DNA of 63,187 bases, filler included, from Sluysia triapertura (lineage: Eukaryota), in NCBI GenBank assembly GCA_046118255.1. It is 4 parts of 4 records of this genome, joined end to end, with 100 filler letters (N's around TTAATTAATTAA, not from the genome) between each part and the next. Parts side by side here need not be neighbours in the genome. Positions count along the whole stretch, not along the records: positions 32,360 to 49,946 come from JBJNIA010187168.1; 3 more parts are not named here. One strand, written 5' to 3'. Shown here one piece after another: positions 26,364 through 60,365 of this stretch. The translations under genes were made by a program, and so were the position numbers. Numbering within the stretch: position 1 is the stretch's first letter; each line of letters starts with the position of its first letter. The notes beneath the pieces were generated by a model. It worked only from the letters and a program-made list of their open reading frames with translations. It was not told the DNA's origin and made no database searches.

Positions 26364-27020
26364 TGTTGGTATTGCCAAAATGTGGAATGGGCGATACGTA
26401 AGAAACATAAAACTACAAGGTATAAGAAAATTTGATGCAAAGTTATGAATAAAACATCATAAATATTATTGGAGTGATAATGATGAAGATGAAGAACCGA
26501 AGAATACCTGGAGTTGCGGAAACTTGTATAAAGTGTTGAGATATTGTGTAGGCTTGAGATCGACTTTGAGATCATTTAAGTCTTTATTGACCTTTAAGAA
26601 CCTTTGAGACCTTAACAAGCATGTAGAACCTTATAAAGTGGTTAAAATCTTTAAAATATTTTAAAAATACAATCATTGTTATTAATATTAAAGATAAATT
26701 TGATACAATAATAACTAATAAAAAGTAGAAAAGAATCTAGAAACTCTGGATTGCCTTATAAAGTACATTTTAACTTTGGAACCTTAATAAAACCTTTAGA
26801 TATAAAGTACGATTAAGTCTAAAAGTAGATTAATTAGTTAAAATTTTAATTTACTCAATTAAGGAAAAGTATATTTTTGTAAATAACTTTTGAATGGGAA
26901 TACTATGCCAAAGTTGAAGCTGTGCATTTATTTGTTTTAAAAGATCTTTCGAGGAAGATATGGTTTGACTGAATTCATGCAGAAAGGCCTTAATTTTGTG
27001 CAATGTCCAATTTTAATTAA
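26364..27020 (+). repeat. Dispersed LTR-like repeat, copy 1 (paired with 31554-32259)
   Basis: Both copies start TGTTGG(T/A)ATTGCCAAA and share collinear blocks such as AACCTTATAAAGTG.TTAAAATCTTTAAAAT, GATTAAGTCTAAAAGTAGA and TATGGTTTGAC.GA.TTCATGC. Confidence 0.75.
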
Positions 27021-31553: not shown

Positions 31554-32259
31554 TGTTGGAATTGCCAAACTGTAAGATCAGAAGATGAGTGAGAAATATA
31601 TAGAATTATTAGATAAAAGAAACAACTGATACAAGTGATGGATTGAACATCTATAATAATGTTATTACTTAAAGAATACCTCTGAGTTCCAAAGACCTAT
31701 ATAAGGGTTTAAGATCTTATGGAATCTTGAGATGGACTTGAAGAACTTTTGGAAGCATTAAGGCACCTTTGAACTTTAGAATCTTTGGATCATTTAAGAC
31801 CTTAGCAACCTTCAAGCACTTGAGATCTTTAAGTAACCTTATAAAGTGTTTAAAATCTTTAAAATGGTTGAGAAATAAAATCTTTGTTCAAAATAATTAA
31901 GATAAGTTCTTTATAATAATAATTAACTTGGAGAAGTAGAAAAAGGAATCAGAGATGTGAAGGTGAAAACATCTAGAGCCTCCTGAATGCCTTATAAACT
32001 ACTAAAAACTTTAGAACCTCAATAAAACATTTAAACATAAAATAAGATTAAGTCTAAAAGTAGAATTAATTAATTAAAGTCTTAATTAACTTAATTAAGA
32101 AAAAGCAATTTTTTGTGAATAACTTTTGAATGCGGAATGCTATGTTAAATTTGAAAATGTGTATGTATTTGTTTTGAAAAGGCCTTTCGATGAAGGTATG
32201 GTTTGACCGAGTTCATGCGAGGAAAGCCTTAATATTGAGCAAAGTCAAATTTTAATTAA
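31554..32259 (+). repeat. Dispersed LTR-like repeat, copy 2 (runs into gap)
   Basis: Collinear with 26364-27020 and clearly diverged. Confidence 0.75.
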
Positions 32260-32589
32260 NNNNNNNNNNNNNNNNNNNNNNNNNNNNNNNNNNNNNNNNN
32301 NNNTTAATTAATTAANNNNNNNNNNNNNNNNNNNNNNNNNNNNNNNNNNNNNNNNNNNNTGATGAAGTGTTTGATGAATGGATGTTATGAATTGTTTGGA
32401 GTGAATGTAGTGGTTTCTTGAGTTGTGAGTGTTTGAAATATGGATTGTTTCGTTGGTGAATGTGAGTTGGAAAAGTGTTATGGTTGTGTATTATTGTTTT
32501 ATGTGATGAATTGTGTGGTGAGTATAGTTGCAGAATATGGTTGTGATAAATTTTATTTCTGTGGAGTTATTTTAAATCTTAACTTACGG

Positions 32590-33800
32590 AGTTGGCCACT
32601 ACACAACGCATCGTAATCTTCTTTTATTCTTTGCACCCACTGATTGAGGTATTTCATCAGGAAAATGCCGACCACTTAGTCTCACTGGTGTTGCTTCATT
32701 TGATAATCTATCAACTCTTGCATTTCATTCAACACGATACTTTCGATCAATTCCTTTGCCAAATGCAACATGAAACACTGAAGTGCTGGCACAAACTATT
32801 GAATTTTCGAAATACTATATCCATCAAGTGTTTCGCCCAGTGTTTGTGTATAACATTTGCATGTCTACATTATCAACTGCGCCAATTTTTTTACAATAAT
32901 CAACAACACATGTTGGTTTCAAGTTGCTTTACGGTTGATAATGTCTATTTTATCAGTCTGCAAAATAGTGCACTTGTGTAAGGATGAAAGCATGCGAATT
33001 TCTCGTTTATCTGTCCACTTGACCGCAAGTAAATTATCCGCTGAAAATTCTTGTGCATAACCTCTTTTCATGTTTCCTGCAAATTTCGGTAAATTCTTTC
33101 TACTTTTCTTGATTGTTCCACAAGCACCTGTTTTTTCTCGAATGATAATTGGAAACGCAAAAGAGAGTGTCCAACATTAAGTAAGTCTGCATCAGCTCCA
33201 CAACAATTCATCCACTGATTCAATTTCTTGATTCATAACTATTTGACTTCCTTTTCCACAATTAACTGCTTTTGATTAGCAGTTAACGACAAACGGCCTT
33301 TCCAAATAACTCAGCTTTCATCGACATGTATAAGTCTTTTGAAGGAACATTAAATGAACTGAACTTTTTTATCAGTGAAGTCATGAGAATAAATGTTGCA
33401 AAAAACATATACTTTTCACCAATGGAAACATGTTTTCCCAAGAACTTCTGTCCTACCTTTTTGATTTATTTGGTTCATGATAAATATTTGTTTGTTTGGT
33501 AATGATTTCCATCCATTCATCATAGAAAAAAATATTCAAATGTATAAACTGGTTCCCCTGACTCAGCGTTTTCAATGCGTACACCAGATGTTTGTTGAAA
33601 TGGAAACAATTTCGGCGTGAATGAATTGCAATAAGTCCAATAGTGGAATCTTCTTGGTCATATTCGTCAGTTGATGATAAATCAGAATCACCGGATTGGT
33701 TTCACTCATACCTAATATATAGAATGAGTATTCAAACTGAAACAGAGTATTTTGCTATCGCGTATGTATTTCCCTCGTGTTTCGTTACCTTTCTTCTACG
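32590..33800 (-). pseudogene. piggyBac (PGBD4-like) transposase pseudogene
   Basis: Manual translation gives IHVDES*VIWKGRLS, TGACGTI, LAVKWTDKREIRMLSSLH and KPTCVVDYCKKIGAVDNVDM in the expected order. Confidence 0.9.
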
Positions 33801-37399: not shown

Positions 37400-39289
37400 C
37401 TAGAATGCAAATTAAAACAAATATTGTATTTTGATAATATTACTAATTAATCAAAATAAATAAATTACCACTTTTTCCAAAATTTAAAAGTATATAGTTT
37501 ATAATTATAAACTTTATTATTTAATCAGATTAGGATTGGCTAACAGTAAATATAGACTTAAATTAAATCTAAATAAATCTTAATAGAAATTTAATTATTT
37601 AGAATCACATCATATATGTTAAGATAAGGTATAATTGTACACAAATTATAAAATTATAGTTTTAGTGTCCGTTTGTTTTGTTATTGTGGTTCATATCACG
37701 ACTGAAATTTAAGTCAAAATTAAAAATAAAGTCAATGACAACAGACACAAAGTTAAAATTAAGTTTAAAACTAACTTTAAAATGAAAGAATAAAAAGGCT
37801 AAAGTAGGGTTAGAGCTAAAGTTAAATTTGAAATTAAAATTTAAGTTAAAAACAGGATCAAAAATAATATCGAAAATAAGGGTCAGACCAAGAACAGAGT
37901 TAAAATCTGATACAAACTAAAAACATGAAGTTGAGAGTGAACATAACAGCTAATGTGCTATGGTTTTATATCCTAAACTTAACCTAATCAGCAAAAATAG
38001 ATTAGTAGAGTCCGTCTATAATATGCTACTTACGAATGATGTAATTACTGTGTATATTCAATGGGATACCTTACTAGCTAAGTTAGGAATCCTTATAATT
38101 AGAAAAAATCGGCACGCTTCTTATATTCGTAAGACGTATTTTATTCTGCACTAAAACGTATTTTATATTAAATGTTAATGTAATCTTTACTATAAAATCG
38201 TTTAATAATTAATATTCTAATTTCTTTCTTTTAAATTAAAAATATGAGACTAAATATCAAATAATTTTACATATTTATTATAAACACTTCTAACAAAATT
38301 ATACAAAAACAATGATGATAAGAGTAGTAATAAATGTAAGACGAATTGTTTATATGATAGTAATAACAACGAAGAATACGAATGTAATACGTAAATAGAT
38401 TAACAACAATGATAATAACAAAAATATGTTTTCAAAGAACCTAGTCTAATATAGGTCCGGTCAAATTTTTATTAATTGTTCAAAAAGATTTTGTCACTGG
38501 TCTTAAGGACCAACGAAAATATGAATCGCTTGAGTAGTATTTTTTAACTCTATTCGAGTTTACAAAACTTATCAAATTAGACTTACTACTTGAATGTTAC
38601 TCGATAAAATAAATTATAGTTGTCCGCTGATGTATCGACGATTATTGTTGATACCCAAATTGATTGTTTATAATCGTCAGTAAATTTAATGTCGTTTCGG
38701 AATCACTTGATAGCATTAAATCAATTTTGGCTGTTCAAAAGTACTAGCTACTTTTCTTGTATAATCTCTTAGTGAATTGCTTTGTAAATTTATTTGCGTA
38801 TTTCTTTGTAACTATTTTTGTAACTATATATTATAGTGGATGAAGGCGTATTATAATTATAAATTTTATGTTTAATATTAGAAAAGTCATCATTAACATA
38901 ATTTGTATTATCATTAGTTTTTTTATATTATTTAATTGATTATAGAAATTGTTATCCACATTTACGTAAATATAATTAAGAAATTGGTGCTTAAGGCACA
39001 TGAAAAGTTTATTATCACGAAAACTTTTAAAACAAAAGTAACACGAGATTTCTTTATTTAGTGTCAACAGTCGTTTTATTGTTATTCTTGAAACACATTA
39101 AAAAAAAGAAATCAAATATGTAACGCTTACATTCTCGACGGGCAACAGTTCCAGCTGACTTGGGGTCAATGCACTGTTCATTACCGTTAAAATGAGTGTG
39201 GATAACTTGCTTATGACCCAAGATGTCAATTTGGCTCTCATATAGACACACTCTACTTCTCCTTTCAATAGTATCTTTAAGCTTTTATT

Positions 39290-39575
39290 ACGTCCTTATA
39301 ATTTTCTTGAAATAAAACATATTTAAAAATAACAGGTTTATCTTTATAGACTTTATAAAATGAAACACATTCTACAATAACACGTTCATCTTTATAAACT
39401 TTATGAAATAAAACACATTTTAGAATAACATGTTTATCTTTATAGACTTTATGAAATGAAACATATTTTAAAATAACATGTTCATCTTTATAAACTTTAT
39501 GGAATGAAAAACATTTTAAAACATGTTTATCTTTACAAACTTTATGGAATGAAACATATTCTAAAATAACATCGT
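39290..39575. repeat. 48-bp tandem repeat, about 6 diverged copies
   Basis: Unit ~AAAATAACATGTT(C/T)ATCTTTATAAACTTTATGGAATGAAACATATTTT, which reads as a 16-aa repeat in ORF 39277-39591 (-). Confidence 0.9.
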
Positions 39576-40036
39576 CATTTTCTGTATTCAAACAGAGTCA
39601 CCACAGAGGCGCTATTAAGCATACCTTTAACGAAAGACACTGCAACTTCAGCAAACGAGTCCTTGAGTCCAACGTTCGATAGCAAAAAGTATATCTCGTA
39701 TAAATCAAAAAACGGTTCTTTTACATTTGTTGCAGCTGGTGATATCAATAGTGATAAACTTTGAAATATAACATCATAACATTTTAATGATTTGACCTGC
39801 ACACCAACTGGCAGTAAAGAATGAAGACTTTGTAATAGACATTTGCCACTGATCTGTTTTCTTAGAATAGCAATAGATTTTGTGTTAGCCTGTAAGCCTC
39901 TAATCAACTTTGTTAAATTAGTTATTAAATCAGCCGATTGTATTGAATATTCAAAGTCATTGAGACATCTTTCAACTTGGTTTACATAGTTTCGAAATTT
40001 ACCATCATTTTAATAACGTGCCTCATCCAGATTCAT
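39575..40036 (-). pseudogene. DOP1: Dopey/DOP1 N-terminal domain pseudogene fragment
   Basis: MNLDEARY*NDGKFRNYVNQVERCLNDFEYSIQSADLITNLTKL...ISGKCLLQSLHSLLPVGVQVKSLKCYDVIF...PAATNVKEPFFDLYEIYFL follows the Dopey_N consensus (KYRNYV..IDKALKNFEYSSEWADLI, KRLAQCLHPALPGGVH.KALETYEIIF). It has an in-frame TAA at 40012-40010 and an apparent internal deletion. Confidence 0.85.
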
Positions 40037-41159
40037 TTCAAAAAATTTTAAAAAGGTGACAGAAAAATTATACTGATACCATTTTTCAAGGAAGCACGAC
40101 CAATTTATATAGTTTAATTTTTTAACAATATAAAAATAATAAAAATGATAATAATAGCAGCAATAATAATGATAATGTGTGTGTACAAAATAAACAACAT
40201 ATAAAGAGTAAGTTTGCATTTCAAAAAAATTGATGTTTATTTCGATACATTTTGCTAAGTAAATCTTTTTAAAAGCTAGACACTTATTTTGCTTATCATT
40301 ATTCATTATGTACTTAAAACATAATAAAATAGAATGTATATAAAATATCTATATTAGAGGCATGCCAAAAATAAGTTAATAGATAAGAAATATATAAGAA
40401 ATTATAAATTTTTGTATTAAAATTAACACGATAAGCTTTGAAATAATAAAGATCAAAAAACAAATTTATCAAATATTAGGCCGAAAGTCATGAGTTTCAC
40501 AATCCTTGATAAATTCTATATCCATAAACCGATGAATAGGAGTTATTTGACGAATGTGTCCACAGCATCTGATAAACTGTTGAACAATATAGAATATGAA
40601 ATGTTAAACGACCCTGATCATACTGTAGTATAATTTAGATTTATTAAAATCAGTCTTGCGCAACATTTGGTTGCTTATGTTTTCTTTATGAGATTTTATT
40701 TTCATTGCTAAAGTTTTGTCATATTTTTATTTTTGATGAAACTCACTCATAATGCATAAAAGAGAATGCGATTATCATTTTGATGACACTGATTAAATTA
40801 GACTCTTAGCTCATGTCCAAAAACTGATTCGAAATCCATTTTTACGAAACTGAAGTATTCGTTGAGATTATAATTTACATGATTGAAATGTGTACTAAAT
40901 AGAATTAGATTACTTTTCCTTTGCCTTTTAAGGTCAACTAAGAGTTCCGTGGAATGTCAATAAATACCAATTACTGGTTTTGTAATTACAACAAATGTGG
41001 ATCGAACAATAGATACGAAAGAAATGATATATGACGTGCACTGAAACACTATTTGAATACCAATGATTTCCAAGATCGTCTACTTCGGAATTAGACATTG
41101 TTTATTCTCATACTTACTGATCTTATAATTGATTCTTTTACCGTAATTACATTTACTAT

Positions 41160-41319
41160 TGTTAGACTTCGTAAAATGGACTGATCGGGGATCGAACCCG
41201 GGACCATCGTCTGCGCAGTCGGACTGCTCTACCACTGAGCTATCAGCCCCGTCTAACAATTCCACTTTCAATACGTTCAACCACACTACTTGGCACTTTA
41301 TAGGCCTTTTACCCCAACA
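41160..41319 (-). mobile_element. 160-bp solo-LTR-like element containing a tRNA-like unit; TSD CTAT
   Basis: Minus strand TGTTGGGGTAAAAGGCCT...GAAGTCTAACA. CTAT lies at 41156-41159 and 41320-41323. Confidence 0.9.
41177..41249 (-). tRNA. tRNA-like sequence (pseudo-tRNA, isotype not assignable)
   Basis: Acceptor GGGCTGA/TCAGTCC, D arm GCTC/GAGC with A box TAGCTCAGTGG, T arm with B box GGTTCGATCCC, followed by TTTT. The anticodon arm is non-canonical. Confidence 0.75.
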
Positions 41320-43796
41320 CTATCATTTAAACAAAAAATAGTTTTATACATCTAACATAAAAAATCATATTTGTTACATAATTATGCAAAAGCGATAATC
41401 GACAATGATGGTAGCATAATTTTCATTGGGGTTACATAATCACATTTCCAATGACAGTTAACTTCTTATTTACAGTTTGAAGAATGCACAAAAAAATAAT
41501 GTGGCTTTTGTTAAAACTAATGTTATCACAATTATTATAATTATTATTATATTAATATTATTACAAATTGTTTAATTTAATTTAACTAATATTTGCAAGA
41601 TGATCTTATAACCATTTATTTTAACGAAATACGGTCCAAAAAAGCATATTTAAAACCTCAATGCAACACAAAGAGTAAACATAAATTTAAACATGTAATA
41701 TGCAAACACTCATCAAAACTCTTATTCTCAAAAATAACCTTACAACTCTTTATAATTAGTCAAAGAAGATTAATAAGAGAATTAAAAAAGAGAAGTTCAA
41801 TACATAAATACTCCTTAATCATATAAATTCTCATTCACCTTCAGCCTCAAACATTCACATTTCAGAATGTCAAGTCATATATAATCCACTAGATTACTTA
41901 ATAATCACCTTCAAAAATAATCAAACAATTCTCTGTTTCGAATATTAAAAAATATCAAATTATGCAAAGATCTTGTTTTTTAAAAGATAAATAAATTTGA
42001 TGATTTTAAATAATAATAATAATTCAAGCAAGACGGCCGAAAGTGCCAATTCTGATCTCATCGGAGAAAGATATTTTGTATATTTATAGAAATACACAAA
42101 TTAAATTCATTACGTAACACAACAAATAAATTCTATTTGTATAAATTAAATCCGTATTATATTTCCAGTTATAATCTAATCAATAACGAATTTTAGATAA
42201 AATATATTTATTTTAATGTTAAGTGAAAATTCGCAAAAAGTAATGTATGGATCTGATCCTGCATTATCAGCTATTAATCCGAAATATATTGTAGTTGACA
42301 TACATTGTTTAACTGTGGAAGTAATTATACGATTTTTATATGAAGTTAGAATAATTGAAGGTGTTAGTGGTATCCCAACATGTATTGAATGATGTATAAG
42401 CGATGATGATTGATTTTAGTTGGTCAATTCAGTGGTCAAATTGATTTGATACGCATTCAGATATAGATAATTGACGGTGTTATGATTACAAATGAAGCAG
42501 AAATATTTTGAAATTATGAAAATGTATTAGTAATTAATGCTGTTTGGCATCCAACAATCTGGAATGCTTCAGTAACATCAGGTAGAAATAAGTTGTATGA
42601 GAGGGTTCTTCTCAATATACTCATTTGGTTATGAGGGATACAAATACTTAAGATAAATTAATTGATATTCAATTGTTATTTGACTTCTTAAATAGTTTCT
42701 CGTTTCTCGGGTGATTGATTTAATAATGTCTCTATTTAATCCATTAGGAGATTGTCATAAATTTATTATTAAACAAATTAACGGTTTTTTGTCTAAATTT
42801 TATAACTGTAATAGTTTTCTATTACATTTTATAAAACGAGACGCCCGCAAATTGTAAATAAAATTAATAAAAAATTGTTAACGAATTGAAAATAAGTTTA
42901 ATTGAAAAGTTAGATATCAAGAATCCTGTATTCAGGCAAGTATTTAAAATAGATTCAAATAAAGAATAACGATTAGGTCATAATTGCTAATATAGCAGTA
43001 TATTACTTAACAAGAAATATAATAAAAGATGAATTAGAACAATTAAGTATTTGCTACAATAACATCGCTTTAATAGATTTGTGTAAAGTATGCGTAAATA
43101 TTAACGAGGTTTCATGTACTATAACCTCCACAAAAGTTATACCAAACTCATTATTCTTACACAAAATTGCAAACTTTATAGGCTAGAAGTTACTTTTATC
43201 AACTGATGCGTCGGGTGAAAAATGACATCATTCTAAAGACGGGAAACTTTATAAATTGAATATTGAATGCCGTAAACGATTTAGATGGAAATGTTTATAA
43301 TGTATAGGATTGATGTAGAATGATGTTTGAAAATTAATAGAATTGTGACATGTTGAGGTAATAGATGTTTTGCATTGTAATTGTTAAAATTATAAGTTAA
43401 AGGCTGGACTACGACAATATTAATACAAGTTATAAAATATTTAAATAACAATGAAATAATACATTATATATATAATTTTATAATTCTGTAAAGTTCATAG
43501 AATAATCGTTAATTTTCAAAATTTGAATTTCTCGATAGAAAAAAATATATAGAGCCACAAAATAATGAGAATGTAGCCACGGATTGTCCATCATTGATTC
43601 AATGTATTACGTTAGTACTGTAACTGTTAATAAAGGAATTGTGGTAGAACATTATCTATTGTTATTAAATTAACTCGTTTTATAATCTTCGTGCTGCTAA
43701 ATTTTCTTCAATGTTTAATAAATTGATATTTTGAAAACAGATACTTTTCTTAGGTCATCTTACATTTTCATGCCTAAATAATTTTTAGTCCGAATT

Positions 43797-43980: not shown

Positions 43981-44844
43981 TGTGGAATTTTAATAATAAT
44001 TTATTTACATATGTCACAAATTCAATTTGTTTATAATGGTTATGATATGCACTTTTAGTGCAATCAATATGATCGAGATGCACTAATATATTCATTAAGA
44101 AATTTCTGAATGTAAATGAAATTTGTTTAATTTTATTACTTAAATAATAAAATTCTTTTTATAATATTTATGTAATTGTTAATTTTAAATATTAAAAAAT
44201 ATCATTGAGTGATTGTAGCGAAAAAATAATTATTTTCACATGAGAAAATTATCATTTGTTATGTTAAAATGTCTCAAGGTGCCAACTTTTAGATGATTTG
44301 TAGTTAGTTAGTAAAAGTTTAACTACTAATTTTTAATCAATCGAAAAGTAATTATCTAAATGAATTAAAAAATATGTTTTAGTAAGACATTTTTCTCTGT
44401 ATGTGATTTGAATGTACAATGTTTATGACTTATTTGACATATTAACAGAAAAACTTCTGCAGATCATGAGAAATAGTAATTATGAAAAAAATTAATGTTT
44501 AGGAAGTATGAGATTGAATAATATAAAAAAGTTGATGTTCGAATTTCGAATTTCAAACAATTTCGTTTGAAAAACTAATATGTAAAGTATCATTATTATG
44601 AACTTGAACTTATATTTGTCAATAATAATTTATATTTATACAATAATGATTTCGATGAAGAATTTTATCACTAATCGAACTTAAATTTGTACTGTAATCT
44701 TAGCATGAAATAACTATAAATTGTCTTAAAATCATATTTTAAGTAATACTTATTAATTCTTTTTCTGTCTTGATATAAGTAACTTATGACAATATATTTT
44801 AAAAAATTCAGTGATTCATAAAGATGACTAAGGTTTATTTCATA

Positions 44845-44876
44845 CTAGCTGTGTACCCGTTCACGCGTTGCTGTAT
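44845..44876 (-). mobile_element. Helitron-like 3' terminus
   Basis: Minus strand ACAGCAACGCGTGAACGGGTACACAGCTAG|T: a GC-rich imperfect hairpin region, then CTAG, then T. Confidence 0.5.
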
Positions 44877-45779
44877 TAAAAATCTGAACAAAAAGGCAGT
44901 TTTGATACATCAAACACAATTTATTAAGATCAAATGTATATAATATATCAAAATAAAAACTAACAATTAAATTATCCTTACATATATGTCATTTGAATAT
45001 AACATATGTAAAATTTAACAGAATTAAATATAAAATATTAAATATTAAATAATTAATCTTACATGCTTTCAAGTACTCTGCAGTAGATATTAAGTATTGC
45101 GAAGTGCGTGGTTGGAACGATTCGAAAAGTGTCATTTGCTTTGTTAAAGGAATTTATAGATTAGACTATGTATGAATGATTTCGCAGAAATTATGAATAA
45201 GTGATAAATAATTTATTTATTTGGATTGTTGAAAGTATAAATTGAAAGTTTGTTGATGAATTAAGTTTGATAGAAGTATTATAATGTTAATAATATGCTG
45301 TTTGCATGTATTTATGTGATTATTTATTTATACGTACATGAAATATTGAAAATTATTTATAGACATTGTTTATTGATTATTTTGTGTAAAATTATTTATA
45401 AATATTAATTTCTTTTTGAAAATCTATATTGAAATTTTGAAAATCTATTCAGATTTTATTTAACATGTAAGTAATTTTATTCAACATTTTCAAATATTTT
45501 ATTTAATTGAAAATATAACTTTGTTTAAATTATTAAATTAATTAAACTACCCAAGGTCAGTTCCAGAATAGTATATGAGATAGTAATTTTTACAACATAA
45601 ACACAATCTTGTAAAAGTATAATCTTTAGAAAAGTCTAATTTCGGAAAATTCAAGGAACTGATTTCTTTTTGAAATTCTAAATATCTATCGTGCACGTAA
45701 CTCATAAAAACTTCTTGTTTATTTTCGAATCTATATTTGTTTAAATCTAATCCAGTAATATAAAATTCTCGAAGCATTG

Positions 45780-47070
45780 CATTATTTTCTTCGTCAATAA
45801 TTAATTTAAGATATTTTTCATCTTCTTCATCGCTACTTATTTCTCTTCTTGGTTCTCTTCTATTCTTATTTCTTTCTTTCCATATTGATATTCGTCTTCG
45901 TCATCATCTCCACATTCATTTTTGTTATTTCTATATTCCTTTTGATTTCTATTGTTACAATTTATTTGTCCCTTATTACTCATTGTTATCATCATTAAGC
46001 CTTAATTTCCTATTAAGGCTTTGGCATCTTTGCTGTTGTTGGCTACTTGCTCTTGTAAAGTCTTGAGTAAACACATTCTACCTTAGTTATCTGCAATCCC
46101 TTGCGCAGTGTCCTTTTTTTATTACAGTTGTCACAGATTATCTTTCCATCTATATTAGTTTGAGTCTTATTATTGTTTTCATATCTTAATGGACTATTAC
46201 TTCTGTTCCTATTAAAGTTAGAACTAGGTGGCCATCTTGGTGCTGGTCTTTGCTCATAATTAGATGCACCATAATTACATGTTCTAATATTTTGAAATCT
46301 TCTACTTGTATTATTTCCTCTGTAATTGTTTGAATTATAATTATTTGAAAAACCTCTACGTGGGCTATTAAATCTCTTCTAATTACTATTTCGATTATTG
46401 TTGTAATTATTACCATGGTTTGAGGAACTATTCATATATCTATTATCATTATAATTATCAAAATTATCTTTATTTCTTGGGAATTTTGGGCTTTTGTCTC
46501 GCTTATATTTGTCATCATTATCACTTATATAATCAATATTATCTCTATCCATTTTATAAGACCTTTCTATGCTTCTTAATTTTTTAATTATTTCCTTAGA
46601 GGTTTACCTTCCATTAACGTAATATATGTTCTTAATTCTGGACGAAGACCAATTTTCAATTTAGCTAATAATGTAGTTTCCTTTTTATCATCAGGGACTT
46701 TTGCCTGGCAACAAGGCTTTTAAGAGCGCATGTGAACTTGTATATAGTTTTATTTGGTTTTTGTTCACTTAAATTTAATTTCTTTGTATATTTTGCAATG
46801 ACATCGAGGGCTATCTCCTCGGGTAAAAGCATTCACAAATGCATTCCAAGATTGCTTATCAATATTACTTATTTCCTTATAGGTTTGAATTGCTACTCCT
46901 GTTAAATAATTTGAATTTTTTCAATTTCGTTCCAACGATTTGCTTCGACTATACTTTCATATTCAAAAAGAAAATCACATAGGTCTTCCGCTGCTCCATT
47001 AAATTTTCCCAATTCAGGTAAAGTTAGTGTAGGACGTATCTATTTTGCTAAATGTTAGATAAAGCCATAT
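45780..47070 (-). pseudogene. gag: Gag with capsid-like region and CCHC zinc knuckle
   Basis: LPELGKFNGAAEDLCDFLFEYESIVEANRWNEIEK, YLTGVAIQTY, LKIGLRPELRTYI, an N/R-rich linker, and C-D-N-C-N-K-K-G-H-C-A-R-D-C at ~46135-46093 (1-nt frameshift in the A run). Confidence 0.9.
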
Positions 47071-47337
47071 AATTTCTTAATTTTGCTCTATAATCGTCGT
47101 ATAATACTATTTGTTTATCTATTTTTACTTAAAACTCACGGAAAGTATAATCTTTATAAAATTAATAATGACTTAGGGTATAGTAATTTATTCAAATATC
47201 GTAATAAAATTCTAATTACTCTTGAGCTTGTAACTATGTCAAAGCTTTTTCTTGAATACTAGTTTCTTAAATTCTTTTTAAATGCTTAAAACTTGAAATT
47301 TATTATTAATTCTCATAAACTGGTCCTCACATATATG

Positions 47338-47375
47338 GTGAGTTCATCAACGGCCTAGACTAGCCGTTGGATTTT
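47338..47375 (-). repeat. Leader-hairpin motif family copy (short loop), ~300 bp upstream of gag
   Basis: Minus strand AAAATCCAACGGCTAGTCTAGGCCGTTGATGAACTCAC, with stem CAACGGC/GCCGTTG. Confidence 0.75.
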
Positions 47376-50046
47376 AGAAACACTTAAGTACAGGAGGTCA
47401 AATGCAAAAATCGATATTCTTATAAGGGATCTAGTAAATTATTTATGTAGTTTATGATATTGAATTTTACGACGATTCCGTTAAAAGGATTCCAAAAAGA
47501 TATTTTACGTTCCGAAAAATTTCGGCGGAACGTATAACGTTAATTTTAGGTATTTTAAATTTATTCAAAAAAACAAAAGTTGTATCACTAAAGTATATTA
47601 TAATACAAAGAGGTTACAGTAACATTAAAATAAAATTATAGCTATAATGAAATTATAAAATAAAATTACAAAATTAACTCAAAAACAGTTAATTCAATGA
47701 TTAAATATTTTAATAATGATTTTACGAAGAAACTATTAAAAAGTTCCACAGTTGATTACAAAATTAAAATTAAGTTAAATGTTACTCTGTACCTATCAGG
47801 TACGAATAATAAACTACAAAATAAACCAATAAAAATAATAAACTAACGATTGACTAATTTAAATATTCAAAAAGAAATCAGTTCCTTGAATTTTCCGAAA
47901 TCAGACTTTTCTAAAGATTATATTTTTACAAGATTGTGTTTATGTTGTAAAAATTACTATCTCATATACTATTCTGGAACTGACCTTAGCTAGTTTAATT
48001 AATTTAATAATTTAAACAAAGTTATATTTTCAATTAAATAAAATGTTTGAAAATGTTGAATAAAATTACTTATATGTTAAATAAAATCCGAATAGATTTT
48101 CAAAATTTCAATGTAGATTTTCGAAAAGAAATTAATATTTATAAATAATTTTACACAAAATAATCAATAAACAATGTCTAAAAATAATTTTCAATATTCA
48201 TATAAATAATCACATAAATACATACAAACAGCATATTATTATTAACAATAAGCATGATATTTTATTACATATAATGATTTTGTATCAATATAAAATACGC
48301 CTAATATAAAGTTTTTGTAAAACTGATATTAAAAGTATTGAAATGTATAGAAAATGTAGAACGAATGTTGAATGTAATCTGTTTAAATCGTATAATCCGC
48401 ACAATAAAACTACAACTTTGTTTCTGAGCTACCATAATAATTATAATAATTAATTTCAAATGCGAAAAATTATTTAAAAAATTAATATTTTTTATTTTTT
48501 GAAGGGCCTTGCAGTGTTAGTTTCGTTTGAAAATAAATTATTTTATCTCAAATGTAATAAAAAATATATGGTATTTTTAAATTAATTTAAAATTTAACTT
48601 GTGAAATGTAATTAATAATAATAATAATAATATAATTATCATTATAATAGTAATAATAATGATAATAATATTATAATTAAAGATTATTAATCTTTCTTTA
48701 ATTCATTTTTTAAAAAGTTTTTCTGAAAGCAATATGAATATATTCAAGGTTTTCAATTTCTGATTAAATTAAAATATTAGTTTGTATTAAACATGAAGAT
48801 GGATGACCTACTAAAAAATTAATTAAAATACATTCGAAAAAATAATCCGAAGAAACTTCTAGAACAAATTACAGTCGTTTTAAATTAATTTAAACAAGTA
48901 ATATCAAAGATATTGGATTAAGTATCTGAAACGTAAATCAAAGGATGCTTCAATATTTCTAAATAAAAGTGAACGTTGTTAATTGTTGATAAATGTCAGT
49001 TATCAATAACTTGATAGGATAATTTTGTTATGACAACTTCATTTAGATGGTATTGACCCGATAAGCCACAAAGAGAGTGCAATGGGATATATAGGTATTA
49101 TGCGATATTTTTGAAAACGGTTTGCAAAATTGATGAATAATTTACGGCAATTAAAATACCAATGATAAAAGAAAGGCATTCAATTTCTATCAAAATAATG
49201 CAAGGTAATTGTGTATGAATTAGGAGCAAATAAGTTATGGATATTTCTCTTTTATAAAGTACACATGGAACGATATGGATAAAAATAGATTTTACAATCA
49301 ATAAATTAAACTACAAAAAATAAATGTCATTATTAAATGTCATCATTAATTACAGTGGTATTAAATTATTAAATATTTTATTTTTCTACATTTGTTAAAA
49401 ATTAATGGTGGTTCAAAATAATTCTATATACATATTTTTCATATGTTATGCTAATTTTATATTTTCTTATGAAAACAAAACATTAATATATTGAAATTCA
49501 AGTGTCAACTAACGCATCGTCATGTAAAACTTATTGAAAACGATTGTGCTTAATAGAAATATAGGCCATTTTAAGCACACTCGCAATTATATATATATAT
49601 AAGGATAATGCATTTTTTTACATCATTTTAATTTTACGAATCAGTGTTTACTGACTAGAAAGGTCAGTAGTTAAGATATTGTTAAGATATTCGCAAATCA
49701 ATAAAAATTTAATACACATTTAAAATAAAATAAGTTTGTAATAAAGTTCATGACTTGACCACCAGAGTGCAGCCACCAGTAAATACTTAACCCTTTGACT
49801 ACCAATGAAACGATAGGTCCCACAGAAACTATGTTCTACATCAGTGGGTTAAAAGTAGCTTTAAACAGTCTAACAGATCGTCCCAATGGTTGTGTAGTGT
49901 TTATTGAATGACGTGAAATCAGCTGGTCGGTTACATTTTTTCAATTNNNNNNNNNNNNNNNNNNNNNNNNNNNNNNNNNNNNNNNNNNNNTTAATTAATT
50001 AANNNNNNNNNNNNNNNNNNNNNNNNNNNNNNNNNNNNNNNNNNNN

Positions 50047-50520
50047 TCATGATGCTATAAAGATTGTAAAGCTTATCAAGTTAATGATACTATTTAATAC
50101 GACGTTGTCAGATAATCATGAATCAGAAATAAGATGTTTAAATGTTCATAAGAATCATGATGCTATAAAGATTGTAAAGCTTATCAAGTTAATGATACTA
50201 TTTAATACGACGTTGTCAGATAATCATGAATTAGAAATAAGATGTTTAAATGTTCATAAGAATCATGATGTCATAAAGATTATAAAGTTTATCAAATTAA
50301 TGATATCATTTAATACAATATCGCCAGATATTCATGAATTAGAAATAAGATGGCTAAATGTTCATAAGAAGCATGATGTTATAAAGAATATAAGGTTTAT
50401 CGAGTTAGTGATGTCATTTAATGCAATATTACTACGTAATCATGAATTAAAGACAAAGCAACTAAATCTTCATACGAATCGAGATGATATAAAGATTATA
50501 AAATTTATAAATTCAATGAC
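50047..50520 (+). repeat. 111-bp (37-codon) tandem repeat, 4+ copies, within ORF 50084-50857
   Basis: MILFNTTLSDNHExEIRCLNVHKNHDxIKIxKxIKL is repeated with divergence increasing 3'-wards. The array starts in the gap. Confidence 0.9.
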
Positions 50521-51409
50521 TCCGTACGATTCAATTCTAGAACTTTGTGATGAGTCAACGATAAAGCATTTCACAAAGTCAATAACTTCGTACAATTCAA
50601 GTCCTGAATTTAATGATGAATCAAATATAGAACATCGTATAGAGTTAACGATTATTGGTGATATTTGTACAAGTGCATCATACAAATTTAATGTTACTCG
50701 CCAAATCCAAGAAGGTTTGAGATCTACGAATACTAGCACACATCAAGTCGTACCGCATTCAATTAAAGGTAATGAATTCTTATTCAATCTGCATCCTTTT
50801 TTTGATGATATCCTGTATAAAATTTTGATTTTTGATAACTTATATTTAGAGAATTAGAAGGATCTTGGACCATGAAACTAGCAGAAGATCCGTATGAATA
50901 TTTTTGTAAAAAGGAAATACTAATTGATTTGTCAATAAACAATTATATATTTTGTTCTTACTATTTCAACTCCAAATTTATTAAGATATCTGATAATTTT
51001 ATTTCTCTGACTTTAAATTATGCTTACATTATAATACAATTATTACTAAAAGAAATAAAGATAACTGTTGTAACTAAATATGGTACCAATACCTATTATA
51101 CATACCTAAAACTTGTAACAAAAATAAGAAAAGTCTTTATAAACATAACCGATATTAAACGAGCTATATTATATACAAGATTAAAGATCTATCATATACA
51201 AATAAAACGAAATACGTTATTTTTTAAGAACTCAGAGTCAACACGAAACGAGTTTCAACATAAATATATCTATATAAGTTCTTTATTCAAAGATAATTCT
51301 GAAACATTCCGTTATACTACAAACATCTTTTATTCCTCTATTTCTATACTCAACTTAGTCTCACATGAAAACATTACTTCAAAATTAAAAATAACTAACA
51401 ACATAAAAC

Positions 51410-51575
51410 TATATAAACTCGGCCACAACACTTATGAAGTAATAAAAATAACATCAACCAATTTATATATTAAAAATCCAAACGATACGAATGCTGAGAC
51501 TTTTGTCGTACATGTAAATCGCTGCAAACTAGCACCTAAATAAGAATATAATTTAAGAAATAGAAAAGTAACAAA
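51410..51575 (+). pseudogene. Ty3/gypsy integrase C-terminal tail remnant
   Basis: TYEVIKITSTNLYIKNPNDTNAETFVVHVNRCK (GPY/F-module-like, ending VHVNRxK), followed in frame by *EYNLRNRK. Confidence 0.65.
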
Positions 51576-51619: not shown

Positions 51620-51776
51620 TGTTGGGGTAAAAAGGCCTAAAGTGCCATTTGGTAAAATGGACTATAATAAAATAAAATCGTTAGTCGGGGCTGATAGCTC
51701 AGTGGTAGAGTATCGAACTTCGTAGCTAAAGGTCCCGGGTTCGATCCCCGGTCAGTCCATTTTACGAAGTCTAACT
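51620..51776 (+). mobile_element. 157-bp tRNA-containing LTR-like element, possible 3' LTR
   Basis: TGTTGGGGTAAAAAGGCCTAAAGTGCC...GAAGTCTAACT with intact A and B boxes. Flanks are AAAT/AAAC (imperfect). Confidence 0.88.
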
Positions 51777-54080
51777 AAACCAATAAGTTCAATAAATATG
51801 ATAACATATTCTTTTAATGTACAAAACCATCTAATACAAAATATTAAATTTAATCAAAGATGGGTAAAATCACTTATAGATACAAGTTCAAATAATCCAT
51901 TATTAATTATAATATATTAAATGCAGTAGAAATTAATATGTTTCATACGATTATTTACAGTAGATCTTATTTAACGGTATATTACAATGTCAACTAACAA
52001 TCCTAGATGTAGATTTATTCGTAACAATATTAGCTTGGAATAGGTGCCTATATGAGATTATAATAGGTATGGATGTATTAAGTATATTGGAAAATGTTGT
52101 AATACATGGAAGTGTAGAGGTATTTTTAGATATAATAATTGGATAAAAAATAAATGTATTTTGAATTGAAATTATCATTAAATTAATTTTTATTTTGAAA
52201 TATTGTAAAATAAAATTATTATTTATTAAAACAAATAAATATTTAAAATTATCACTTATTAAAAAATTTATTATTATTATTAGTATTACTATTAAAACAA
52301 ATAAATATTAATAGCTAAATATTACCATAACTACTGTTTGTTGCTAAATACAAAAAAAGTATAAAAAGAACAAAATTTTATAGATTTGTCACACATAAAA
52401 AAGAGGAAAATATCGATAACAATTATAATTATTTCAAGGAGAAAAAGAAGACATTGACAAAAAATTTTAATCATATTGATAAAGCATCATATTTGAGATT
52501 GTAATTTATAAAAAACGCAGCAGTTTAATTATTTATTTGGAAAAAACTTTCAGTTTAATCGTTAGTTTTAAGAGAAATTTTAATTTAAACATAAAATTTA
52601 CGTAATTTTAAATTAAGCATTTTACTAAATTCTATATACCATATAAAATCGTTTCAAAAAATTTAAATAACTAAATATTAATTAATAAAATTAATATTAT
52701 TAACCATTCCTTATATTTCTTGTATATTACTACTAAAATCGAACATTTGACACATTATAAATTTACAATTTTGTAACTAAATTAGAGTTGAATTAAAAAA
52801 TTCTTATAAGAATTATAATCGAATTAATATTTTTTATATCAAAGTTGATTTACCTTTATTATATTGTGTGTTATAATGTATACAGTTTTGTTATATACTT
52901 ACTTGATTTAAAACTTTTAGCACTAACTGTTTTTCTAAAGTTTATTATTGATTTAATTTAAAATTAACTTAACATTTTTGTATCTAAAGGTTTACACTAT
53001 TATTATCTTGTATAATTGTTTTAGTTTGAGTATAATATTTGGTGTTTATTAATAAATAATCTTAATATTAAAGCGTGTATTTTCTTTTGATATTGAGTAA
53101 GGTAAATTTTAAATAATTGAATTGATATTTTATAATACTTATTCTCTAAATTAGAATAAGATATTCGTCAAGAAAATTTAATAGTATCTAGATTTAGTAA
53201 ATCGGCAGAATCAGGAATAAACATAAGTAAAAACTTCCAATCCTTATCTTTCTTTGAAGCTGCAAATCCATGTGCTGGCTCTTCAGTGAGTAAGTCCAGT
53301 ATCATAGAAAACTTACGTTTCAGATAAGATATTTAATATCATAACAAATTTCAACAGAAGATTAGGATTCTTTAGTATTCCTTTAGGCACACATGTAGTA
53401 TTACCACAATTAGTTTTACCTCCAAAGACAAGAGCAATGCAATCATTATCACAAAATTATCAAATTTCTTCACTAAATCCACCAATACCACCATCACCAA
53501 CTCCAAATTGGGATTGGTGGGACACCACAGTTTCTTCGACTTCTGGTTTAGGAACAGATAATGGTAATAAAAATAGTAATCATAGTAGCAGTATAATGTT
53601 TATAAGAGGAATTCTAAATAATAAATAATGAATATAATAACTTTTATATTAATGTTATTTCAATTATCAGCCATGATAATGCATTATCCGGCAAACCTAA
53701 CAAGTTATACCGATATTAAACAAGAAATTTTTCTAACAAATATTTTAAATCGATTTTGGACAACAGAATAGACAACAATTTAGATATTTATTGCATCTCT
53801 TTAAAACCATTATTAATAAAAAAACCTTTGTTAATAGATGATATCTATCATTGTGAACACTCAATCTATTTTACTGCAATAATAGGATTTTCGTTTTATA
53901 ATAGCAAATTGATAACAATAAATTTTACAGATGTACTTAATAAACAATGTTATAAGGAAACTTAAATTATACTAACAACTATAACGAGCAATAGGGAAAG
54001 CACAACAAGTAAAGAAATAAGCACGGGTACAATAATTAAAAAGAATGGAAACAATATAAATAATATCCTTATAATAGTAC

Positions 54081-54237
54081 TGTTGGGGTAAAAGGCCTAA
54101 AGTGCCATTTGGTAGAATTGACTATAATAAAATAAATTTGTTAGACGGGGCTGATAGCTCAGTGGTTGAGCAGTCGAACTGCGCAGCGAGAGGTCCCGGG
54201 TTCGATCCCCGGTCAGTCCATTTTATGAAGTCTAACA
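54081..54237 (+). mobile_element. 157-bp solo-LTR-like element containing a tRNA-like unit; TSD GTAC
   Basis: GTAC|TGTTGGGGTAAAAGGCC...GAAGTCTAACA|GTAC. Confidence 0.92.
54148..54220 (+). tRNA. tRNA-like sequence (73 nt, isotype not assignable)
   Basis: Acceptor GGGCTGA/TCAGTCC, D stem GCTC/GAGC, T stem CCGGG/CCCGG with TTCGATC loop, and TTTT at 54221-54224. The 18-nt anticodon arm has only 3 plausible pairs. Confidence 0.75.
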
Positions 54238-54336
54238 GTACTTTTAATATTTACTATAATATACATGCTATTTACCACTTATTGTATTCTTATTTGTAAT
54301 AGAATCCTAAGAGCTAATAATATACGACGAGATATA

Positions 54337-54793: not shown

Positions 54794-57689
54794 AAGTTAT
54801 TCAAATTTTTCATCTAATAATGTCATTATTAAGTACCAAGAATCAATAGATTTTATTCTGATCCAGGATCACCATTACTACCAATAATGCCATTTCCATT
54901 ATACGAATAAAATACTGACTTAAGATTACCTATACATTATAATGAAATTCAAATGTCAGTTTTACTATGTATTTGTTTAACATGTATAACCACTACGTAT
55001 TCAACAAATAAGTTAAGAAAATGTTTTACAATGATATTCAGTTATCTATACAAGGCAAAACCGAAGAAATCATAGCTATCGTTAAAAATATGAATGGAAA
55101 ATTAATTTACTTATCCATAAGACGCTATCTAGAAAATCAATGTACTGCTTCGACAACTCCTTATAAAACAATAAAACAGTGGATCATAACTTGTGAAGAA
55201 TTATTCGAGTCTCAATTATATAAAGTCAAAATAACAATAGAGTTAATAAACAGATTAATACATACGCAGTATCATTGGATAAGAACCAAACCATATTTAT
55301 TTTTTGATCATTTTAGTAAATAATGGATGAATTGTTCTTTTGCAGCAACAATTGACAGGAATAATTTAGTTAAAATGACCAACACGTTATTAAACAATTC
55401 AATCGCCACAAAACATCGTATTAATAAAGTTTTCATTCTAGAGTTAATACCACCTAGGTTAACAATTAGAATAGATTACCATGCAAAATCAACATTCCCG
55501 ATTATATATGTTTGGATATTTTTCATTAATGAAACATTTAAGATGAACCGTATTTGGCTTGGATGACCATTTAATTTAGTAGTACCAATCATTAATGAAA
55601 TTAAGGAAGATACGTTGAATAAGTATAACAATCAGTATACATATTTGCTGATTTGTGTTGGTTTTTTGCTTTTTTGTTTATATTTATTCATTTCACTTTT
55701 AATAAAATTTTACGTTTTTTCGTTCTTTCGACATTCCCACTTTATTCTTAATATTTTTGGTCTGCCAATTAAATATGAAAAACTCAGATCCGCATGTTTC
55801 ACTTTTAATTTAATTTAGCCTTTTAAGATGATTATTTTGAATTTACTTTTTATTTGAGACGTGCATTAAGCCTGTACCAAAAATTCATATTTGAAGTACA
55901 GTTAACACTAAAATAAACATTAATGAATATCATTTGACCTTCAATATTAATCTTGTTTAACTAATTTGTGTCAATGTGCCAAAATATTTGTTAAATGTCA
56001 AGTTGTAATTTTATTTTAATTATTCGTTAATTTCTTTATTCATTTTGGAATAACGTGAAATAAATCATTTATTTATTCAAATAAATCTAATCTATTTACT
56101 TGAACATTGGAATTAATATAAAAAACTTTAAATATAAATATAATTGTATGATAACATATGTTACAGACGCCACTTAATTTTTATTTGATATTAACCGATA
56201 ACGTATTGATTGTACTTTAAATTTGTTAACATTAAAAAAATTAATCAGATTACAATTTCAAAAGTAACTTATTTTTATTTAGTTTTATTTGTAAGTAACT
56301 AAATATAAAAATAAAATAGTTTTTCTATAATCTTATCTAAAGAATTATTATGAATATAAAAATTATCTAAAAATAAACTTTAATTTTGAGAAAAAGCAAA
56401 TTCCATAATTGTAAGACAATTATTTTAAAAATTTAGAATAAACATTAAACGTAAATAATCGAAAATGTGAAGTTAGACGGATATATAAAGATCATTCATT
56501 AATTACAAACACGTTTTTTCTGTTAAACATGGTAATTGGTAATTTTATCAGCCAAGGAAGATAAATACCTAAGACTAAAGTAATTTTATATCTGAGAAGT
56601 CAGACACATGTTTATTGATTTATATTAAAATGACTCAGAGTATATCTGAATGACCCAAATTCATTTCAAAATGAATAATATTTATTTATCATAGATCGGT
56701 TCGACATCATATAGTCGATATATAATAGAAAAATAATAATATAATAATTTATCAAAGGATTTAAAAATTTTATAATTAAAATAAAGAAAGTTTCAAAGTT
56801 GGAAATTTGTTATTGGTTATAAAATCTCATAAAATGGCTGTAGTCGCTCAAACTTTTACTAACGATCTTATAACGTAATATAGCATATCATTTTTGTACA
56901 AAACTTCACATAATACCGTACTGAAAAAAAATTTACAAAATTGATCAAATCAAATTGTTCCTGTTCAAAATAGTAGCTTTAAGTAATAGTAAAACTATTA
57001 CTCTCCCTCATTTTTCTTTTTGCTGTAGTTTTTTAACTCTTGACTTAAACCAAAATAAATTTTATTAGGATCCAGTTACATTATACAGCTTACGCAAAAA
57101 TGGCGTACCTTAACTTCGTATCTTTCATTTTACTTTACTTCGCTCAAATTTATCGAATTTTTACTTATGGATTTAACAAGCGTCTATTGCTATGTTAAAC
57201 TAATGAAACTAACTATATTAAACTATATTAGCCATGTTAAACTAATTACTTGAATTATTCTTAAGTTAGATAATAACTGAAAGGTCTTAAATTTCTAATA
57301 CCTTATTCAATTAATTACAAAAACAATTTTCAATTATTAATATTTTATTATAATAACATAATTAAATAAAAGAAGTCTAACAGTATTTATCAGATTGTAG
57401 TGATTCAAAACCTTTATGTAAGGTTATTTGTTGATAAATAAATGATAATAATATTAAAAATAATATAACAACAATAATTATTATTATAATAATTATAATA
57501 GTTAATAGTTAATTTTAATAGTTAAACAAATAACCTGGGTAATATACCTGAAATACAAATATTAATTATTAGAATAAATAAAACACTTACTCGAATAATC
57601 TTACTTGAATTACCTAAATGAAAAATAATTACAAAAATTTTTAAAATAAATAAAAATTACTTAATATTAATTAATTTTAAAATTTGTCA

Positions 57690-60365
57690 AATTTCTAATT
57701 GACACTGGAGCTGCCGTGTCTGTAATACCACATCGTTTTATTAGAAATACGTTACAAAGACCTTCATTCCTCACAACAGTAAATGGGACAACAGTTACCT
57801 GCTTTGGCTCCAGAAAATTACAATTTAAATTACCGCATTTTAATAAGGTATTCGAATGGACTTTTATAATCGCCGCAGCACAACAACCGATAATAAGAGC
57901 AGATTTTCTTACCCACTATAAACTCCTAGTGGATTTCCACAATAAAACTTTAACTAAGTCCTTCGAACCACTTAATCATATTAAAATAAAACTAGAAGAC
58001 CTCAAGACCTAAATCTGAACACTTTATCAAAACTGTACCTGCACCACCGTGCAGACAACGACGACGAGAACTAGCACAAAAAATACGTTTTCAGGCAGGG
58101 ACAGAATTCCTTGAAATGGAAAGACAAGGAATAGTGCGGCGTTGTTCTTCATGGACCGCACCTCTGCAAATCGTCAAAAAGAAAGATGGGACAATAAGGA
58201 TATGTGGTGACTGCTGAATGCTCAACAAAGTCACTGTTCCAGACACTAATTCCACTCATAACAAACATCCGGCATAGATTTTCTGGTTGTACAATTTTCT
58301 CTTCAATAGACCTCACAATAGACCTTACCATCAAATCTCAGTACATACTGAGGATATACCTAAAACAGCCATTACAAGTCTTTTCGGTTTGTTCGAATAT
58401 ATAAGAATGCCTTTCGGTCTAATAAATGCACTACAAACATCGTTCAAGGCTTAACTTTCGCCACAGCCTACATCGATGACATCATAATTGCTTCTAGATA
58501 TTTCAGGCAATATCAAACACATCTGGAACAAGTATTCCAAAGACTATCCGACAATAATTTAATCATCAAAATCAGCAAATAGCAATTTTTCAAAAATAAA
58601 ATCACTTTTCTAGGATACAATCCCTTTGACGGGATAGAACCGCTCGAAACTAGGTACAACAGTAATAAGATACTTCTCGCAACCCAAGACTGTCACACAA
58701 ACGCGGAGTTTCTTAGGCCTAGTAAATTATTGTCGACGCTTCATTCCGAAACTGTCAGAAATCATTGCACCATTAACAGTTCTCTCCTTGGGAAAGGAGA
58801 ATCAACAACTCAATTGGAATACTAAATCTCTCGAAGCTTCGACTAAACCAAACAAGCAATTATAAAAATGGCAAGTTTAGCATTTCCACTACAACACTTA
58901 CCGTTCACCTTAAAAACAGATACTTCAAATACAGCAATAGGTGGGGTACTTGTTCAAAATCAAAATCGAATTTTACTCAAATAAACTTTCTGCACAAGAA
59001 ACACGATATTCGGCATTCGACCGTGAATTGCTCGCCACTTATATTTCCATTAAATATTTCGAGTACTTATTACTGCCAAAGCAATTCACACTTAGAACAG
59101 ACCACAAACCGTTGTTGCACATATTCACAATGAAAAACCCCACACCAAGACATCAACGGCATATTAGCTACTTGTTTTGGTTCAACTTTAGCAGAGAATT
59201 CAATCCTGAACAAGAAAATGTGGTCGCCCATGCATTATCAAGTGTTGGTCTAAGCAGCATCGAGTTGCAGTCAATATTCACTGTTGAAGATTTACAAAAT
59301 AACCCACTATATAGTCTAGAAATTTCCGAATTCTCAGTAAAACCTTCGTTACATGACAGAATTTTCTGACTATCAATTTTCAGGTACTTCTCGACCCATT
59401 CTAGGACAACAGCTCCGAACCAAAGCTTTCGAATATATTCATAATATGATACGTACTGGAGCTAATGCCACATACGAAATCCTACGTTCAAAAGTAATAT
59501 GGCCTTTAATGACCAAGACATCAAACACTGGTGCAAATCATGTTGACTGGTCAATCTGTGAAAATACACAAAAATATAAAACCTAAAACACTTCACTTCC
59601 CCACAGGCCAACTCTTCGATACAATAAGTATGGAAATAGTCGGTCCACTACCACAATCACACGGTTATACATATATCTTAACCATATTTGATGGCCAGAA
59701 GCGTTTCCAATCAGATCAATTACAACGGACATCATATCCAGAATTCTAATCACAAACCGGATTTCACGCTTTGGTGTACCTAAAAGAATTATCACAGATA
59801 AAGGAACTCAATTTGAGTCTAGCCTATTTAACAACTTACTCAAACAACTAGGCAGTGCTAGACTACAAACAAATTCATCCCATCCACAATCCAACGATAT
59901 GATAGACATAATCCATAGAACTCTTAAAAACTCTTTACGCGCATTATCAATACACTATAAAATTAGTGGTCAACTCATTACCACTAATTTTATTAGGTTT
60001 GCGAAATATCCTACGCTCTTCAACCGGATATTCACCAGCCCAAATAGTCCTAGGAACTCATATAAAACTACCCTTCGAAATATTCGAAAATGATAACCCT
60101 ACCGAAAAAAATATACTCACCACTCTTGCGGCAATATTTTAATGAACTGAACAAAACAAACATTCATAATGAAAGACCTCATATTCCAAAAGATATTACT
60201 GACAGTAAATTTGTCTGGCTCAAGTTAGAAAATCCAAAATCACTTCAACCACGATACACCGGGTCCATACAAAGTCATCCAATTCAATTCAAATAACAAT
60301 ACAGCTTCAATCGATATCCATGGAAAAGCTAAAGCAATCAAATGGTGTAAACTTAAATCCGTTGC
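57690..60365 (+). pseudogene. pol: Ty3/gypsy pol pseudogene (PR-RT-RNaseH-IN)
   Basis: FLIDTGAAVSVIP, WTAPLQIVKKKDGTIRICGD, MPFGL, YIDDIIIAS, YSAFDRELLA, TDHKPL, IVGPLPQSHGYTYILT, RFGVPKRIITDKGTQFES, HPQSN and LQPRYTG, in gypsy domain order with many frameshifts. Confidence 0.97.

Follow-up and report, generated by a model that had tools for sequence, protein, structure and literature searches.

A gag-like relic between long inverted repeats with TG/CA ends in Sluysia triapertura

Several described kinds of mobile element resemble, in part, a 2963-bp element found at positions 45285-48247 of a 63,187-nucleotide stretch of Sluysia triapertura DNA (assembly GCA_046118255.1; the whole stretch is called the window below), within the part taken from record JBJNIA010187168.1. 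Ty3/gypsy elements (Metaviridae) share with it TG...CA ends of the TGTNR pattern, a short target-site duplication (TSD), and a gag-like gene in which a CCHC zinc knuckle comes after capsid-like motifs, but here the terminal repeats are inverted and not direct, pol, a primer-binding site, and a polypurine tract are missing, and the gene is broken. The TR-GAG elements of plants (PMC4350172) are likewise shorter than 4 kb with gag as the sole coding content and no enzymes, whereas our element lacks direct repeats, the typical feature of elements with long terminal repeats (LTRs). Ginger2/Tdd and Ginger1 DNA transposons have terminal inverted repeats (TIRs), TGTNR ends, and 4-bp duplications, in Ginger2 at AT-rich targets, as here (PMC2836005); they also carry an integrase-like DDE transposase in place of a gag-like relic, have TIRs of 40-297 bp against an arm of 390 bp here, and use CCGG/CCGT (Ginger1) or RTATAY (Ginger2) as targets, compared with T-ATAA-G at this single site. 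DIRS1-like elements also place gag between nonidentical inverted terminal repeats, but the source on them (PMC7192593) describes an internal complementary region (ICR), a reverse transcriptase, an RNase H, and a tyrosine recombinase that our element lacks, and flanking trinucleotides in place of the TG/CA ends and 4-bp duplication seen here. A single provirus with an inverted LTR is on record for a foamy-like endogenous retrovirus of guppy (PMC5210030), which belongs to another retroelement group. Because at least one defining feature of each of gypsy, TR-GAG, Ginger, and DIRS fails, the element is not a member of any of them as defined. No gag-only element with long TIRs was described in the literature covered, which left subscription journals and Repbase outside.

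The inverted-arm structure is real and unusual. The reading we favor, tentatively and at slightly less than an even chance, is that of a truncated, dead copy of Ty3/gypsy type in which an inverted duplicate of the 5' end took the place of the 3' part, and which an integrase then inserted once. In window coordinates, the element is made up as follows:

45281-45284, no strand: left copy of the putative 4-bp TSD, ATAA (chance match, 1.05%)
45285-45683, plus strand: left arm (the 3' arm in the gag sense), outer end TGTTA; from the arm alignment, with the left junction in an X1 contig (44984-45371; run X1 is described below)
45547-45900, minus strand: 117-aa open frame, the charged tail of the gag-like gene, with about 45 codons inside the left arm
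46090-46135, minus strand: CCHC zinc knuckle, interrupted near 46120 by a frame change; PF00098 match with X at that point (E = 0.011)
46136-46590, minus strand: Asn/Arg-rich low-complexity linker from the capsid-like part to the knuckle, with an in-frame stop near 46379 (from translation)
46591-47068, minus strand: capsid-like region, in pieces, with a putative start near 47068 (from weak Atlas leads and Gag-like motifs)
47069-47856, minus strand: noncoding 5' region with three GC-rich hairpins at 47290-47560 (z = -2.0)
47857-48247, minus strand: right arm (5' when read in the direction of gag), whose outer end reads TGTTA on this strand; from the arm alignment, with the joint between arm and 5' region in an X1 contig
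48248-48251, no strand: right copy of the putative TSD, ATAA (from the junction sequence)

A preliminary description of this locus had proposed inverted repeats of about 390 bp, and alignment bears this out: the arms at 45285-45683 and 47857-48247 are 93.7% identical over 396 columns (blastn). Over 387 columns there are 11 substitutions, 9 of them transitions (Kimura two-parameter distance, 0.029), and the arms are further separated by about three indel events: one of 3 nt near the tip, one of 10-11 nt near 45330, and small inner-edge gaps. The junctions read ATAA/TGTT ... AACA/ATAA, so that homology does end exactly at TG/CA within flanking ATAA, as stated at the outset, and the base just outside TG is unlike between the arms. 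That ATAA might match by chance had been raised as a caveat; random cuts in the local flanks put the figure at 1.05% for a 4-bp match of this type and 1.5% for any match of 4-6 bp. No further copy of the arm occurs anywhere in the window, and no direct copy lies within 10 kb on either side. Perfect match between the arms stops at 45674 and imperfect match continues to about 45692, the 18 nt inward of the perfect match being imperfectly similar, with 10 of 400 controls scoring equally well. An older, longer homology inward of 45693 was rejected, being equaled by 56/150, 44/150, and 119/150 controls and, at the protein level, by 47-300 of 300. The right arm is likely the native start of the parent element, and the ends are most economically explained by the action of a gypsy- or Ginger-type integrase.

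Between the arms, a gag-like gene runs on the minus strand from about 47068 to 45547, broken into pieces of 43-117 aa over three frames. By eye, it contains about eight frame changes, those in the capsid-like region lying near 47050, 46905, 46820, 46720, and 46600, and at least four in-frame stops; it is a pseudogene, and dead. On sequence grounds, its identity as Gag is likely. With X placed at the frame break, the knuckle matches PF00098 (zf-CCHC) at an E value of 0.011 and 16.3 bits, under the cutoff of 20.8, and the capsid-like pieces resemble Ty3/gypsy Gag motifs. Weak Atlas leads for the capsid pieces include DUF4939 (0.92), DUF7041 (0.88), and DUF7746 (0.86), all of which we take to be Gag related, along with a cluster with 10% PF03732 (0.89); the top Atlas clusters for these pieces are unnamed, and one is labeled Artverviricota on 2 records. 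A single-sequence fold of the capsid-like part is helical at low confidence (predicted local distance difference test, 56), with no Foldseek match at E = 0.001.

Of the Gag with capsid and CCHC knuckle first described, the knuckle survives as a weak Pfam match (E = 0.011), but neither an intact open reading frame (ORF) nor a Pfam or PDB match for the capsid was found. The overlap noted between the left repeat and the 3' part of the ORF is confirmed, the frame at 45547-45900 (minus strand) entering the left arm by about 45 codons. The hybrid architecture proposed for the element likewise stands in its gag-like relic, inverted arms, TG/CA ends, and 4-bp duplication, but not in its capsid-encoding part, since with the gene dead this copy encodes no capsid. 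Searches restricted to longer proteins gave no homologue of the 117-aa tail (271 candidates) or of the N-terminal gag piece (10 candidates); two metagenome loci considered as relatives of the tail were bacterial genes that match by chance. Viral scans gave no relative, and none of 39 exact 16-mer matches was backed by blastn among 41 loci. The frame changes, about eight per 1.4 kb, compare with 3.6-5.4 predicted from the inter-arm indel rate. Set against three inter-arm indel events, eight changes (5.4 expected; P = 0.18) are compatible with arm decay, and the indel load of the whole element is roughly in line with neutral decay.

The rest of the interior adds no enzyme. The motifs D[ST]G, YxDD, HPDK, and RHRY are absent from all six frames of the element, and Pfam searches of its pieces (7 + 7) gave no protease, reverse transcriptase, integrase, or recombinase match, in agreement with the preliminary description. 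No polypurine tract lies by an arm, the sole purine run of at least 12 sitting in the ORF about 190 nt away. Direct LTRs were not found, the best direct match of the 5' and 3' parts scoring 17 (20 nt) against 11-15 for controls, nor was an ICR: in matching the interior, the terminal 60 nt did no better than 36-98 of 100 controls. There is likewise no support for a 468-bp LTR that would end at TAACA 47780: TAACA occurs 8 times in the element and at 2.7/kb in the flanks, and depth does not drop there. The hairpin region folds modestly above shuffles (z = -2.0; 8 of 200 shuffles as good). Two adjacent hairpins at 47330-47372 (minus strand) have palindromic or near-palindromic loops, and by analogy they could possibly act as an RNA dimerization signal; a hammerhead suspected in the 5' region is unsupported (0 Rfam matches at E = 5).

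Information on relatives comes from X1, the single run containing the locus (74% of sampled words), which may be the source sample. Contigs were placed on 44100-47840, that is, on the left flank, one arm, and the interior; the 3430 placed, out of 6,252,256 records, divide into 320 at 99+% identity, 661 at 95-99%, 1458 at 90-95%, and 991 under 90%. Unique contigs have a depth of 10.9-20.8, arm-like sequence at 45541-45577 has a depth of about 490-660, and gag bins reach 31,000-72,000 (maximum, 71,597 per bin), thousands-fold deeper than the flank. Mean depth is 275 in arm bins versus 452 in 5'-region bins, and the arm is not double the 5' region. As orders of magnitude, these depths point to a gag family of very high abundance, with close arms forming a far smaller set. 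The left junction is covered by a 388-nt contig (44984-45371) with 0 differences, and two inner stretches of the element also match contigs with 0 differences. Contigs of other copies have single-letter indels at or near three of the gag frame-change sites (among the best 12 of 46 indels). A second identical copy, suggested by the depth of 20.8 on an exact contig at 45846-46138, was not used, GC there being 0.32 versus 0.21-0.22 in the flanks.

Eleven X1 contigs depart from the element at 45665, at most 20 nt from the inner edge of the arm, and continue for a median of 36 letters unlike the arm (top of the best 6 of 818 loose ends). In one contig (depth, 21), arm position 45674 is joined to 47795 on the opposite strand, with 70 nt less than in this element (among the best 15 of 74 joints), which shows that the 5' region follows the arm in some other copy or allele. 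At 45577 and 45611, G is found in both arms, whereas another letter accounts for 504 of 513.8 and 82.5 of 82.5 of the depth (among the best 40 of 263 differences), so that each arm resembles the other more than it does most relatives. Together, the loose ends, the joint, and the shared letters fit best with a flipped 3' arm on a truncated gag tail. Because relatives depart where the 3' arm starts, the arms share rare letters, and arm depth is not double that of the 5' region, the X1 data lean indirectly toward a rearrangement, present once or in few copies, of an abundant family of gypsy type that bears gag, the very case that the preliminary description had named against its own proposal.

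Under such a scheme, synthesis during copying of the parent would have halted near 45665-45690, within the gag tail, and resumed on the start of the element as a new template, aided by 10-25 nt of local similarity; the 10 perfect shared letters at 45665-45674 and the 18 imperfect nucleotides beyond them would have served. The resulting DNA would bear the same TG-starting end on both sides. It would be a plausible integrase substrate: when Ty1 integrase is overexpressed, DNA with TG/CA ends alone is inserted and a duplication results (PMC2939329). TGTNR is the end pattern of both Gypsy and Ginger (PMC2836005), and the TGTTA ends of the element fit it. A gypsy-type integrase acting in trans would then have joined both CA ends to an AT-rich target, giving ATAA twice, after which the arms would diverge like an LTR pair while arms and gag decayed neutrally. 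With no polypurine tract, direct repeat, or pol gene, the product would undergo no further retrotransposition, and we know of no route by which an element could be reverse transcribed again without a direct repeat, a polypurine tract, or an ICR.

A number of observations weigh against a rearranged gypsy-type copy. The capsid-like pieces have no significant match in Pfam, PDB sequences, Foldseek, or 1.84 billion protein representatives, where the query for the last was a 115-residue piece read through stops, with about 30 residues off-frame or X. The 5' region contains four TGG, none directly after CA, so no primer-binding site was found, and it has no clear LTR end, which leaves the LTR nature of the parent unsupported. 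The gag frame stays open for 42 codons within the arm (P = 0.029 by shuffling), as would suit a native 3' arm, and if just two inter-arm indel events are counted, eight frame changes exceed expectation (P = 0.03). The X1 depth sums are orders of magnitude and not copy numbers, the details come from the best 6 among 818 loose ends and the best 8 among 3595 contig pieces, and depth inside gag is patchy, other gag bins being just 295-1033 deep. The loose ends at 45665 stop after about 36 letters and may mark a short deletion in this copy; by eye they also resemble the low-complexity tail near 45840-45870, and the gag tail may be a repeated unit in relatives. The joint between 45674 and 47795 is just as compatible with a normal LTR start as with a shared inverted layout, private letters can also be common to the long inverted repeats of one subfamily, and other arm-like contigs exist in X1.

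These points leave room for a second explanation, possible though less probable than the rearranged copy: a small non-autonomous family of inverted-repeat DNA elements with Ginger2-like ends, in which a gag segment was captured as passive cargo and cut-and-paste movement is supplied in trans by an integrase-like transposase. A non-autonomous Ginger member need not encode a transposase. The fall from very deep gag to shallow arm at 45665 would suit a capture junction, and the joint of arm and 5' region recurs in another contig. Arm-like depth of about 490-660, against 11-21 for unique contigs, means that other arms exist, but the window contains no further arm, no copy with paired arms came to light, and the arm is not covered twice as deeply as the 5' region. 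The TGTNR ends, 4-bp duplication, and AT-rich target are Ginger2 traits (PMC2836005), although the arm exceeds the longest TIR in its Ginger tables (297 bp) and the target T-ATAA-G fits neither RTATAY nor CCGG/CCGT.

Less favored again, and improbable in our view, is the type of element that the preliminary description had in mind: an undescribed and very abundant class of Gag-encoding elements with inverted, subfamily-specific TG/CA ends, intermediate between LTR retrotransposons and Ginger, which would package RNA or DNA and borrow reverse transcriptase and integrase, this locus being a decayed member. The 42 codons of gag frame inside the arm (P = 0.029) would be natural in such a class, as would the long charged tail that follows the knuckle and lacks a protease motif, and the failure to find either a primer-binding site or a polypurine tract; extreme depth is also easier to picture for a short non-autonomous family. 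However, relatives depart at the inner edge of the arm, there is no ICR from which ends could be rebuilt as in DIRS, and the older, longer arm homology did not beat controls. To our knowledge, there is no way to reverse transcribe a Gag-only element with inverted ends.

Decidedly unlikely is the insertion of two copies of one subfamily, independently and face to face, followed by deletion of the middle, with ATAA arising by chance: both arms do start as a 5' end would, and a divergence of 2.9% is nothing unusual for sister copies, but the duplication would match by chance in just 1-1.5% of cases (somewhat more under a target preference), and both arms carry letters that are rare among relatives. 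Misassembly is unlikely too, and an assembly artifact is the least credible of the alternatives, for although the window is gapped and repeat rich (N runs), no contig spans the whole element, and X1 placement stops short of the right junction, the arms are distinguished by 11 sites plus indels, X1 contigs agree with the left junction and with two inner stretches at 0 differences, and the same 4-mer at both ends would not be expected from a misjoin.

If this reading is true, a rearranged gypsy-type copy would, even as a one-off, show in nature how an LTR-type end can become a terminal inverted repeat with a clean integrase footprint. A related step, in which LTRs in opposite orientation became TIRs, is raised as one possible origin of Ginger1 in the Ginger paper (PMC2836005), which calls the chain of events unclear. 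Should the layout recur with different duplications, it would represent a new kind of non-autonomous element, and the transition from LTR to TIR would become testable in one genome. Judging by sequence comparison, the gag family may also be an unsampled lineage, because it is very deep in X1 yet has no match among the 1.84 billion representatives. A single dead copy gives these considerations modest weight.

The surrounding window is AT rich, with a GC content of 0.22-0.37 per 2 kb, and has 7 N runs; its content suggests a eukaryote, probably an invertebrate animal. The gaps at 15176-15275, 32260-32359, and 49947-50046 each consist of 44 N, 12 letters, and 44 N, and the one inspected is a linker with stops in all frames, so the window joins separate contigs. 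Pfam matches in the window comprise Dopey_N, trypsin, pogo-type and piggyBac-type transposases, and a separate, decayed gypsy pol. This pol lies at 57671-60090 (plus strand) in the order protease, reverse transcriptase, RNase H, integrase; no gag was found in the 1.7 kb upstream of it, that pol region gave no tblastn match to the pieces of our element, and its RNase H, used as a query, found 2 proteins, neither with a Gag part. To the right of the element by 2.6 kb, past the gap and on the opposite strand, a 234-aa open frame at 50839-51543 (plus strand) ends in a VHVNR motif like an integrase C terminus (PF22938, E = 0.048). Just to the left of the element, a very deep X1 repeat occupies 44850-45100 (bin depth, 18,496), which by eye resembles a Helitron-like non-autonomous repeat.

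Other repeats and gene fragments are scattered through the window. A tRNA-like short repeat, probably a short interspersed nuclear element, occurs in four copies (3484-3556, 41157-41322, 51620-51782, and 54078-54241), two of which ARAGORN calls as tRNA of undetermined type. A direct repeat of about 460 bp at 26564-27020 and 31783-32259, with copies 75% alike at a spacing of 5.2 kb, may represent old LTRs or else a dispersed repeat. Tandem repeats of 108 bp at 50047-50519 (plus strand) form part of an open frame of about 270 aa, for which Pfam gave nothing of note. Fragments of pogo-type (DDE_1, BrkDBD) and piggyBac-type (DDE_Tnp_1_7) transposases are present at 10303-11225 and 32922-33176 (both minus strand), and a divergent Dopey_N fragment that may represent a gene copy in decay lies at 39280-40009 (minus strand; E = 4.6e-19), alongside a tandem repeat of 96 bp (39293-39581).

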